A DNA stretch of 33,809 nt from Octopus sinensis (lineage: Eukaryota), in the NCBI RefSeq assembly GCF_006345805.1, contig NW_021831972.1, positions 1 through 33,809 on the forward strand, written 5' to 3'. Under the pieces are notes generated by a model. The model made no database searches, had not been told where the DNA came from, and was given only the letters and a program-made list of their open reading frames with translations. Below, one piece after another: positions 6,761 through 9,697 of the stretch. Numbering within the stretch: the first letter of the stretch is position 1; each line of letters opens with the position of its first letter. A program made the position numbers and the translations under genes.

Positions 6761-6862
6761 TATCTATCTATCTATCTATCTATCTATCTATCTATCTATC
6801 TATCTATCTATCTATCTATCTATCTATCTATCTATCTATCTATCTATCTATTTATCTATCTA
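6761..6862. repeat. (TCTA)n microsatellite, 5' flank of Tx1-like copy 1
   Basis: Direct reading. Confidence 0.97.
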
Positions 6863-7894
6863 GGACGTCGACGAGGAGTACCTGACCCGCCTGTTCGGGA
6901 CGACTTTCGGGCCAGGGCCCATGGACAACTTCCAGAGATCCCTGGCCTGGCAGTGCTACCGAGAAGCGCTACCCGTTCGGGATAAGCTCTACAGACACGG
7001 CTCGAGAAACACGGGGCCGACCTGCCCGAGATGCGGTCAGAGCGACGAAACCGTTCTGCACGCACTCGTGCAGTGTCCAACAATTTCCGACCTGTGGGCT
7101 TATGTCGAACAACTGCTGTCACGTGTGGGACGAGTCGGTTTATCAGCTGAGTCTATCGTCAATATTGTCACGCCTCCATCCTTCAAACGGGAAGGAAGAG
7201 CTATTTTCATCATCCTTGTGGCTATGGCGAAAGAATGTATCTGGTGGACGTGTTTGAAAGGATTGGAGACAAACACTTTCCTCTCTGGTCAATCTCTCAT
7301 CAACTTCTTCAAGTACCACTTGAAAAGGAAAGTGAGAGTAGAGAGGCAAGTTTTGTCTAGGGAATGTTTTAAAAAAAGATGGGTGAATGTAGCAAGGATG
7401 GCACGTATGAATGACGAAGCCACCTTGAGCATAATCCTATGAACCCAGAAATTGAAAACAGAGGGTTACCCACTTGCAAACAAATGTGGTAACATATAAC
7501 AATATTGACCAAGGTTACCGTGGTCTTTTGGTAGGCTTTTCTTCCCACGGATAAACCTTACTTGCTTTCCCCTTTACACCATATATCATAACACTGTGAT
7601 ACACGATCCCTATTGATCGTTTTTTTTCCTCTTCCCCCTTTTTCCCCTTTTTTCTTCTTTTTCATTTCTCTTTCCTTTTGTTCCTTTTCCTTTTCTTTTT
7701 TTTCTTTTTATTCCTTTTATTTTATTCAAATTTTTTTTTGTTCTTTTCTTCCCTTTTACGATCCCTCTTGATCGAAAACCTACGCCACCCCTTTTTTTTT
7801 CTTTTGTTTTTTGTTCTCTTCATCCCCCAAAAGAAAAGCTCTACCTTGTAACTTGTCCCATCTGTGTGCAGCCCTGTGTGGCCAATAAAGAAAC
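6863..7894 (+). mobile_element. 5'-truncated Tx1/L1-type LINE, copy 1 (ORF2 C-terminus + 3' UTR)
   Basis: Open frame to TGA at 7440-7442 with CCHC zinc knuckle CPRCGQSDETVLHALVQC preceded by W..Y.EALPV; pyrimidine-rich 3' UTR ending AATAAAGAAAC. Confidence 0.88.
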
Positions 7895-8181
7895 CTATCT
7901 ATCTATCTATCTATCTATCTATCTATCTATCTATCTATCTATCTATTATCTATCATCTATCTATCTATCTATCTATCTATCTATCTATATATCTATATAT
8001 CTATCTATCTATATATATATATATATATATATATATCTGTCCATCATCTATCTATCTATCTATCTATCTATCTATCTATCTATCTATCTATCTATCTTCT
8101 ATTATCTATCTATCTATCTATCTATCTATCTATCATCTATCTATCTATCTATCTATCTATCTATCTATCTATATCTATCTA
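7895..8181. repeat. (TCTA)n/(TA)n microsatellite between the two Tx1-like copies
   Basis: Direct reading. Confidence 0.97.
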
Positions 8182-9295
8182 CCGCGAGTGTCGCGTTGCT
8201 CTCAAGCAACTCTGCCGTCCTGGGTCGACCTTAAGTGACTTCAACACAACCAAAGCATTCTATAGGGGTTTAGTGGAGGGGAGGTACGACGACGAGCTCG
8301 GGGCGAACCTGGACGTCGACGAGGAGTACCTGACCCGCCTGTTCGGGACGACTTTCGGGCCAGGGCCCATGGACAACTTCCAGAGATCCCTGGCCTGGCA
8401 GTGCTACCGAGAAGCGCTACCCGTTCGGGATAAGCTCTACAGACACGGCTCGAGAAACACGGGGCCGACCTGCCCGAGATGCGGTCAGAGCGACGAAACC
8501 GTTCTGCACGCACTCGTTCAGTGTCCAACAATTTCCGACCTGTGGGCTTATGTCGAACAACTGCTGTCACGTGTGGGACGAGTCGGTTTATCAGCTGAGT
8601 CTATCGTCAATATTGTCACGCCTCCTTCCTTCAAACGGGAAGGAAGAGCTATTTTCATCATCCTTGTGGCTATGGCGAAAGAATGTATCTGGTGGACGCG
8701 TCTGAAAGGATTGGAGACAAACACTTTCCTCTCTGGTCAATCTCTCATCAACTTCTTCAAGTACCACTTGAAAAGGAAAGTGAGAGTAGAGAGGCAAGTT
8801 TTGTCTAGCGAATGTTTTAAAAAAAGATGGGTGAATGTAGCAAGAATGGCACGTATGAATGACGAAGCCACCTTGAGCATAGTCCTATGAACCCAGAAAT
8901 CGAAAACAGAGAGTTGCTTATTTGCAAAAAAAAAAAAAAAAAAAAAAGAAATAAAAGTGACTTCATTGACCGAGGTTACCGTGGTCTTTTCCGCAGGCTT
9001 TTCTTTCCACGGGTAAACCTCACCTGTCCTCCCCTTTACACTTCATATTGACATTTCTGTGATAACGATCCCTATTGATCATTTTTTTTTCCTCTCCCCC
9101 CCCTTTTTTTTTTTTTTTTTTTTTTAACCCCCCTTATTTTTGTCCTCTTTCTCTCCTTTTACGATCCCTTTTGATCGAACCTCCCCCTTTCTTTTTTTTC
9201 TTTTTTTTTTTTTTTTTTTTAATACCTTCAAAAGAAAAGCTCTACCTTGTAATTTGTTCTATCTGTGTGCAGCCCTGTGTGGCTAATAAAGAAAC
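8182..9295 (+). mobile_element. 5'-truncated Tx1/L1-type LINE, copy 2
   Basis: Frame open from 8183 to 8890; same zinc knuckle; 7 substitutions versus copy 1 over the 580 shared coding nt; same AATAAAGAAAC end. Confidence 0.88.
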
Positions 9296-9697
9296 ATATC
9301 TATCTATCTATCTATCTATCTGTCTCTCTGTCTGTCTGTCTGTCTGTCTGCCTATCTGTCTGTCTGTCTGTCCGTCCGTCTGTCTGTCTGTCTGTCTATC
9401 TATCTATCTATCTATCTATCTATCTATCTATCTATCCATCTATCTATCTATCTTTCTCTCTATCACCGATGAAAAGAGATATATACATATATATGCATGC
9501 ATATATATATATATGCATGCATATATATATATATATATATATATATATATATATATAGACATATATGTATGTATGCATGCATCATGCATGTATGTATGTA
9601 TGTATCTATGTATGTGTGCGTGCGTGTGTGTGTGTGTATGTGTGTGTGTGTGTATGTGTGTGTGTGTGTGTGTGTGTGTGTGTGTGTGTGTGTGTGT
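9296..9697. repeat. Compound (TCTA)n(TCTG)n(TA)n(TATG)n(TG)n microsatellite
   Basis: Direct reading. Confidence 0.95.

Follow-up and report, generated by a model that had tools for sequence, protein, structure and literature searches.

Two copies of an L1-group LINE in an octopus microsatellite point to a family that likely inserts by preference in (TCTA)n

We wondered how two copies of the same LINE came to lie one behind the other in a (TCTA)n microsatellite of Octopus sinensis. The stretch of DNA analyzed (contig NW_021831972.1, positions 1 to 33,809; 33,809 nucleotides, here called the window) had been interpreted before from its letters, and this sequence-only reading described two 5'-truncated copies, starting at 6863 and 8182, with TCTA tracts on either side of each. 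All of these are indeed present, on the forward strand. A (TCTA)n tract (6761..6862), likely a pre-existing target and without a family 3' end before it, leads into copy 1 (6863..7894), which holds the last 192 codons of ORF2 (6864-7442) and a 3' UTR of subfamily B. An interrupted (TCTA)n/(TA)n tract (7895..8181) connects copy 1 to copy 2 (8182..9295), which comprises the last 235 ORF2 codons with the zf-RVT domain (8183-8890) and a 3' UTR of subfamily A, and which is followed by a terminal A and a (TATC)n/(TGTC)n tract (9296..9464). Both copies end in AATAAAGAAAC without poly(A), as had been claimed, but the 3' end of copy 2 does not run directly into the repeat, from which it is separated by the one extra A; across the family the base at this position is A or T, depending on the subfamily. 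In our preferred reading, which we hold with good confidence, the two window copies were inserted independently, each with a truncated 5' end, and they belong to a young L1-group LINE with two ORFs, probably a member of the Tx1 clade; the copies of this family lie mostly in (TCTA)n in one orientation and were likely inserted there by target-primed reverse transcription.

Copies of the family were located by pattern and protein searches of the genome. The 3' terminal 30-mer has 6,246 exact matches in the 2.72-Gb genome (reversed control, 0), a lower bound for the family since only exact 30-mers were counted, and a 23-mer from the full-length 5' end has 202 matches genome-wide. Natural full-length copies measure about 6.1 kb and carry two ORFs; overall, copy lengths range from 31 to 6,198 nt with a common 3' end, variable 5' truncation and no LTRs. 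Among 19 rows examined, which were picked partly for long open frames, ORF1 is open over 665-667 aa in two (L200, L261) and ORF2 over 1,145-1,146 aa in five. ORF2 matches an APE endonuclease (PF03372), a reverse transcriptase (RT, PF00078) and a zinc finger (PF13966) above cut-off. Its nearest solved relative is the human LINE-1 ORF2p (PDB 8sxt, 8c8j, 1vyb), which has the same APE-RT-zinc finger order; the RT matches it with E ~1e-40, versus 1e-20 for R2, and the catalytic motifs of the APE domain align with the human L1 endonuclease. The family is an L1-group LINE: ORF2 combines APE, RT and a C-terminal zinc finger, a separate ORF1 lies upstream, LTRs are missing and the 3' end is fixed. Its placement in the Tx1 clade is fairly probable. 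The protein relatives found, all unannotated, come from Argonauta (69%), the cuttlefish Sepia/Acanthosepion (55%), hagfish (43%) and coral (41%), and no named Tx1 sequence was among the matches of the protein searches. ORF1 has no Pfam hit; it shows a CCHC knuckle (CX2CX4HX4C) by eye, and its Atlas look-alikes carry zf-CCHC (score 0.91). Such a knuckle is typical of Tx1 and non-mammalian L1 elements, though not unique to them.

Judged by sequence identity, the family is young in part, in agreement with the sequence-only reading: among 33 unselected copies on contig C1 that span the 580 nt shared by the two window copies, nine carry 0-2 differences from copy 2 and 14 carry 31-45. At about 100 of the 150 genomic places scored, the protein match to the ORF2 fragment of copy 2 is 100%. 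Subfamilies appear to have exchanged their 5' UTR/ORF1 and 3' UTR as modules. L174, L194 and L182 share an ORF2 about 90% alike with L064 and have a different 5' UTR and ORF1 (about 75% alike at the 5' end and unalignable in between), and in subfamily B a near-identical ORF2 end is followed by a different 3' UTR. A decayed old relative of the same ORF2 (42-58% identity, four pieces) lies at 12601-13660 of the window, and a tract scan of the window found no TCTA tract beside it.

We analyzed the flanks of the first 100 pattern matches on contig C1 (0.79-38.9 Mb), mapping 5' junctions against natural copies; junctions that fall in the T-rich UTR are imprecise, and the sample covers exact 30-mer matches from one chromosome stretch of 38 Mb, among which a few tandem units are not independent. 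(TCTA)3+ was present within 40 nt in 82/100 5' flanks, 75/100 3' flanks and both flanks of 68/100 copies, and in the opposite orientation in none. Five of the 100 copies were their own references, and once these were removed 77/95 had a 5' tract. Background frequencies were 8/3,190 windows of unselected DNA (0.25%) and 66/9,445 windows far upstream of the same copies (0.7%). As a control element we used an RTE-like LINE at 1172-4345 of the window, which we take to belong to the RTE clade; two overlapping frames encode its APE and RT, and its tail is (ATG)n. Its 3' 23-mer has 3,597 exact matches in the genome, and (TCTA)3+ was found at either end of 0/30 copies sampled in the same way. The flank tabulation had been proposed as a check that could refute targeting, and most copies do have TCTA on the 5' side, exceeding the 20% of flanks used to call a target repeat in the methods of PMC4494074. 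The family thus likely inserts in (TCTA)n by preference. The claim of a (TCTA)n-specific family holds as a strong and strand-specific preference only, as 18/100 copies lack a 5' tract; one of these borders an assembly gap and the others lie in TTA, TA, TCTG or unique DNA.

The sequence-only reading had also argued from a 5' junction register shared by both copies, and this argument failed. The A at 8181 fits both tract and element, which leaves the junction of copy 2 uncertain by one base; that of copy 1 is shifted by 15 nt in the other assembly version, on contig C2, and all four phases occur across the family. A fixed 5' register was rejected: the last four flank bases read ATCT at 23, CTAT at 14, TCTA at 13 and TATC at 7 of 57 junctions that adjoin a pure tract (chi-square p 0.027), which were taken from 106 rows, the other 49 being interrupted tracts, off-target sites, internal deletions or inversions. 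The 17 junctions without microhomology read ATCT 8, CTAT 6, TATC 2 and TCTA 1 times, and the single TCTA case is copy 1 of the window. Microhomology of at least 1 nt occurred at 40/57 junctions versus 41% expected by simulation (p 1e-5) and of at least 2 nt at 18/57 versus 13% expected; a weak lean to flanks ending in T (14/17 unambiguous junctions, p 0.013) was spotted post hoc. The fixed register sits at the 3' end, where 5,535 of the 6,246 ends genome-wide continue [A/T]TATC, and the 5' register is free. Without the register argument, the overall conclusion on targeting largely stands.

We propose that insertion would proceed by target-primed reverse transcription. The APE endonuclease would nick the (GATA)n strand, most likely at GATA/GATA, a position suggested because clean target duplications start C|TAT; it is read from a handful of copies, three beginning C|TAT and copy 62 G|TAT, and would not be the same in all. 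The RNA, giving rise to no integrated poly(A), would probably read a few bases into the downstream repeat of the donor, and this repeat end would pair with the nicked strand, help priming and set the 3' register. The 5' end would be joined in L1 style via 1-2 nt of microhomology, in any phase and sometimes with inversion. Within the last 80 nt of the element no convincing hairpin was found (-5 to -7 kcal/mol, without a shuffle control).

Transcripts would probably begin inside the upstream tract of the donor, since TCTA-like sequence of 9-18 nt precedes the full-length 5' end where target DNA is not expected: L261 and L053, both inverted, have 9 and 13 nt of it at their inner joints, which contain no target DNA, and in L148, a full-length copy at an off-target site, 18 nt separate the 11-nt duplication from the element start. 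Nearly all of 30 full-length 5' ends are preceded by a tract, which is weaker evidence of a pre-existing target. The premise that a truncated LINE cannot bring its own 5' repeat fits the truncated copies with clean duplications, which add 0-1 nt; full-length copies can bring 9-18 nt.

A different division of labor is possible, albeit rather unlikely, in which the endonuclease is weakly selective and the site is set mainly by a (UAUC)n read-through end of the RNA pairing with the nicked (GATA)n strand. The fixed 3' register would fit this idea, as would off-target copies in TTA, TA or TATG repeats or in unique DNA, which still share TAT or TATCT with their sites. In clean duplications, however, TAT is present in both duplicated copies; it is thus target DNA and fits an endonuclease motif equally, so that the sharing of TAT/TATCT between off-target copies and sites fits the endonuclease and RNA pairing alike. 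Reviews credit mainly the endonuclease for targeting (PMC4494074, PMC3812793). A short, abundant repeat that looks like a SINE has a tail of about 45 nt resembling the LINE 3' end in looser form (19651-19695 of the window, reverse strand; also L275, L110, L124, L140, L145, L152, L158, L164 and others). After dropping one of 17 rows as a LINE copy, (TATC)3 followed 0/16 copies of this repeat, which leans towards RNA pairing only if the repeat is moved by the TCTA-family LINE, and it may be moved by another LINE. The two elements possibly form a SINE/LINE tail pair in which the SINE-like partner lacks the targeting. In an extended version, which we regard as doubtful, the transcript would start within the upstream (TCTA)n and finish within the downstream one, so that the target marks either end of the RNA, and the site would be picked by pairing of RNA with DNA, not by the endonuclease. 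The family would then both exploit and lengthen GATA tracts and perhaps mobilize the SINE-like repeat, which would serve as a natural control for RNA-guided site choice.

Returning to our preferred reading, in which the tract was there before the element, we found that the earlier claim of a pre-existing target holds mostly, in light of truncated copies, target duplications, inverted copies and a likely empty site. Of the 76 truncated copies that have no 3' end of the family in the 600 nt before them, 60 have a 5' tract (median ~68 nt), and 41 of these 60 tracts measure at least 40 nt. The median is longer than the clean target duplications of 11-25 nt. Informative duplications were present in 14/100 true flank pairs versus 0-6 in 20 shuffles; short ones were seen where the site is imperfect, and some others are long local duplications. 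The 5'-inverted copies L261/L090 and L042 are bordered on the outside by (TCTA)n in target orientation; this repeat was not supplied by the RNA because the adjoining element position is internal and antisense. At L258, a contig from run X5 follows the flank error-free as far as the junction; beyond it come 21 letters that do not belong to the element, a stretch similar in length to the part of the window's first tract that contigs cover. Going by this count, run X5 likely holds the empty site. Contigs from 3/4 other runs matched the first 12 nt of the tract at 6761-6862 and stop ~22 nt into it, so that the presence of the window copies in those runs is not readable. For four copies on small contigs, empty alleles were found on chromosomes in 0/4 cases.

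It is improbable, by comparison, that the repeat is only a tail, with the element making the 3' TCTA and the 5' tracts stemming from earlier tails, from duplication plus slippage or from passive accumulation. This would explain why L258 and L049 have a long 3' tract and little repeat at the 5' end, why another 3' end of the family lies within 600 nt upstream of 17/100 copies and why repeat is found at the 5' end of full-length copies. In other copies, however, the asymmetry is reversed, with a long 5' and a short 3' tract, and truncated copies with clean duplications (30, 34, 62, 83) have 0-1 nt added at the 5' junction. The long 5' tracts of solo truncated copies likewise speak against a tail, and the strict orientation together with the RTE control argues against passive retention. 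L125 has the same inverted structure as L261/L090 and L042 in (TA)n without TCTA on either side, which indicates that copies can do without a TCTA tail. Some of the 3' tract may nevertheless be element-made, as suggested by the long 3' tracts with almost no 5' counterpart and by some copies in which further repeat separates the 3' end from the duplication (17 nt in copy 62).

The proposal that the two window copies inserted independently and did not arise by tandem duplication is well borne out. Their coding parts differ at seven of 580 shared nt (98.8% alike; four synonymous and three nonsynonymous changes), and their 3' UTRs have diverged much further, with 49 mismatches over 373 aligned nt and a further 112 gap columns (~72% alike over the first 170 nt). 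Each 3' UTR subfamily has many relatives elsewhere that are 95-99% alike, which favors independent insertions. The contig of the window aligns with contig C2 (150.73-150.76 Mb) at 99.1% over 33.8 kb and probably represents an uncollapsed haplotype of it; in the C2 version the junction of copy 1 carries 15 more element bases upstream, and the junction in the window may therefore be secondary or an assembly error. A local duplication or assembly artefact, which the similar coding parts, the overlap with C2 and the differing copy 1 junction might suggest, is highly improbable and already largely refuted by the two 3' UTR subfamilies, the unlike truncation points and the presence of both copies in both assembly versions. 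Elsewhere, at L172 (C1:37459996-37460495), one tract holds three 3' ends of 68 nt that share one interruption upstream, probably a local duplication and not separate insertions.

L1 elements offer a precedent for the structures described here, being likewise truncated or inverted at the 5' end and joined there through microhomology; they end in poly(A) and nick T-rich sites. Unlike L1, the octopus family has no poly(A) and ends in its target repeat. Closer counterparts in habit are the Tx1-clade elements of teleost fish, Kibi in (TC)n and Koshi in (TTC)n (PMC4494074, PMC3812793). Like these, the octopus family is an APE-type non-LTR element in pyrimidine-rich microsatellites, and by analogy it appears to work as they do. 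Its (TCTA)n target differs from theirs and lies outside the known set of (TC)n, (TTC)n, (TTCC)n and (TTTC)n, so the family is not Kibi or Koshi itself. Crocodilian Tx1 elements (Tx1-1_Crp, Tx1-5_Crp, Tx1-6_Crp, Tx1-1_Gav and Tx1-2/3/5/8_AMi) share the preference for tetranucleotide microsatellites and target (TTCC)n and (TTTC)n instead of (TCTA)n (PMC4494074). The sequence-only reading had suggested an analogous family on a tetranucleotide repeat; the GATA target is new among those found, but a tetranucleotide target as such was already known for Tx1 (PMC4494074).

Our literature search, mainly of open-access texts and with Repbase and Dfam apart, found no GATA- or TCTA-targeting Tx1 element. 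Waldo, Mino and Dong belong to other clades, R1 and R4. These microsatellite-targeting non-LTR elements occupy (ACAY)n, (AC)n and (TAA)n, respectively, repeats that differ from (TCTA)n although Waldo too has a tetranucleotide target, and the list of Waldo, Mino, Kibi, Koshi and Dong in PMC3812793 names none with GATA. Within the literature searched, (GATA)n is thus a new target repeat for a known habit. In O. vulgaris, 13 recently active L1-Tx1 families with 421 insertions are tabulated (PMC13282606 Table 1), and the word 'target' occurs 0 times in the main text of that paper. Octopus repeat annotations already catalogue young Tx1-type LINEs (PMC13282606, PMC8967140), and the TCTA family may already be in such a library.

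With this family, (GATA)n would join the microsatellites in which APE-type LINEs insert by preference. How such repeats are targeted is described as not well understood (PMC3812793), and an unusually large young family with thousands of copies, several with open ORF2, would make site choice by endonuclease and by RNA pairing separable. About 6,000 family ends compare with 48,936 starts of (TATC)8 runs in the genome, a count in which interrupted tracts figure more than once, and GATA markers and assemblies in octopus will often be broken up by insertions of the family. Two other parts of the window, at ~13800-13880 and 15640-15830, hold 3'-end-like segments that end in GG.AAATAAAAGAAAT and lead into (ATC)n and (ATT)n tracts; these may be tails of related LINEs with other microsatellite targets. 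A stretch at 14979-15530, near an (ATT)n tract and without a Pfam hit, presumably resembles, by motif, the restriction-like endonuclease region found at the C terminus in LINEs of the R4/Dong type.
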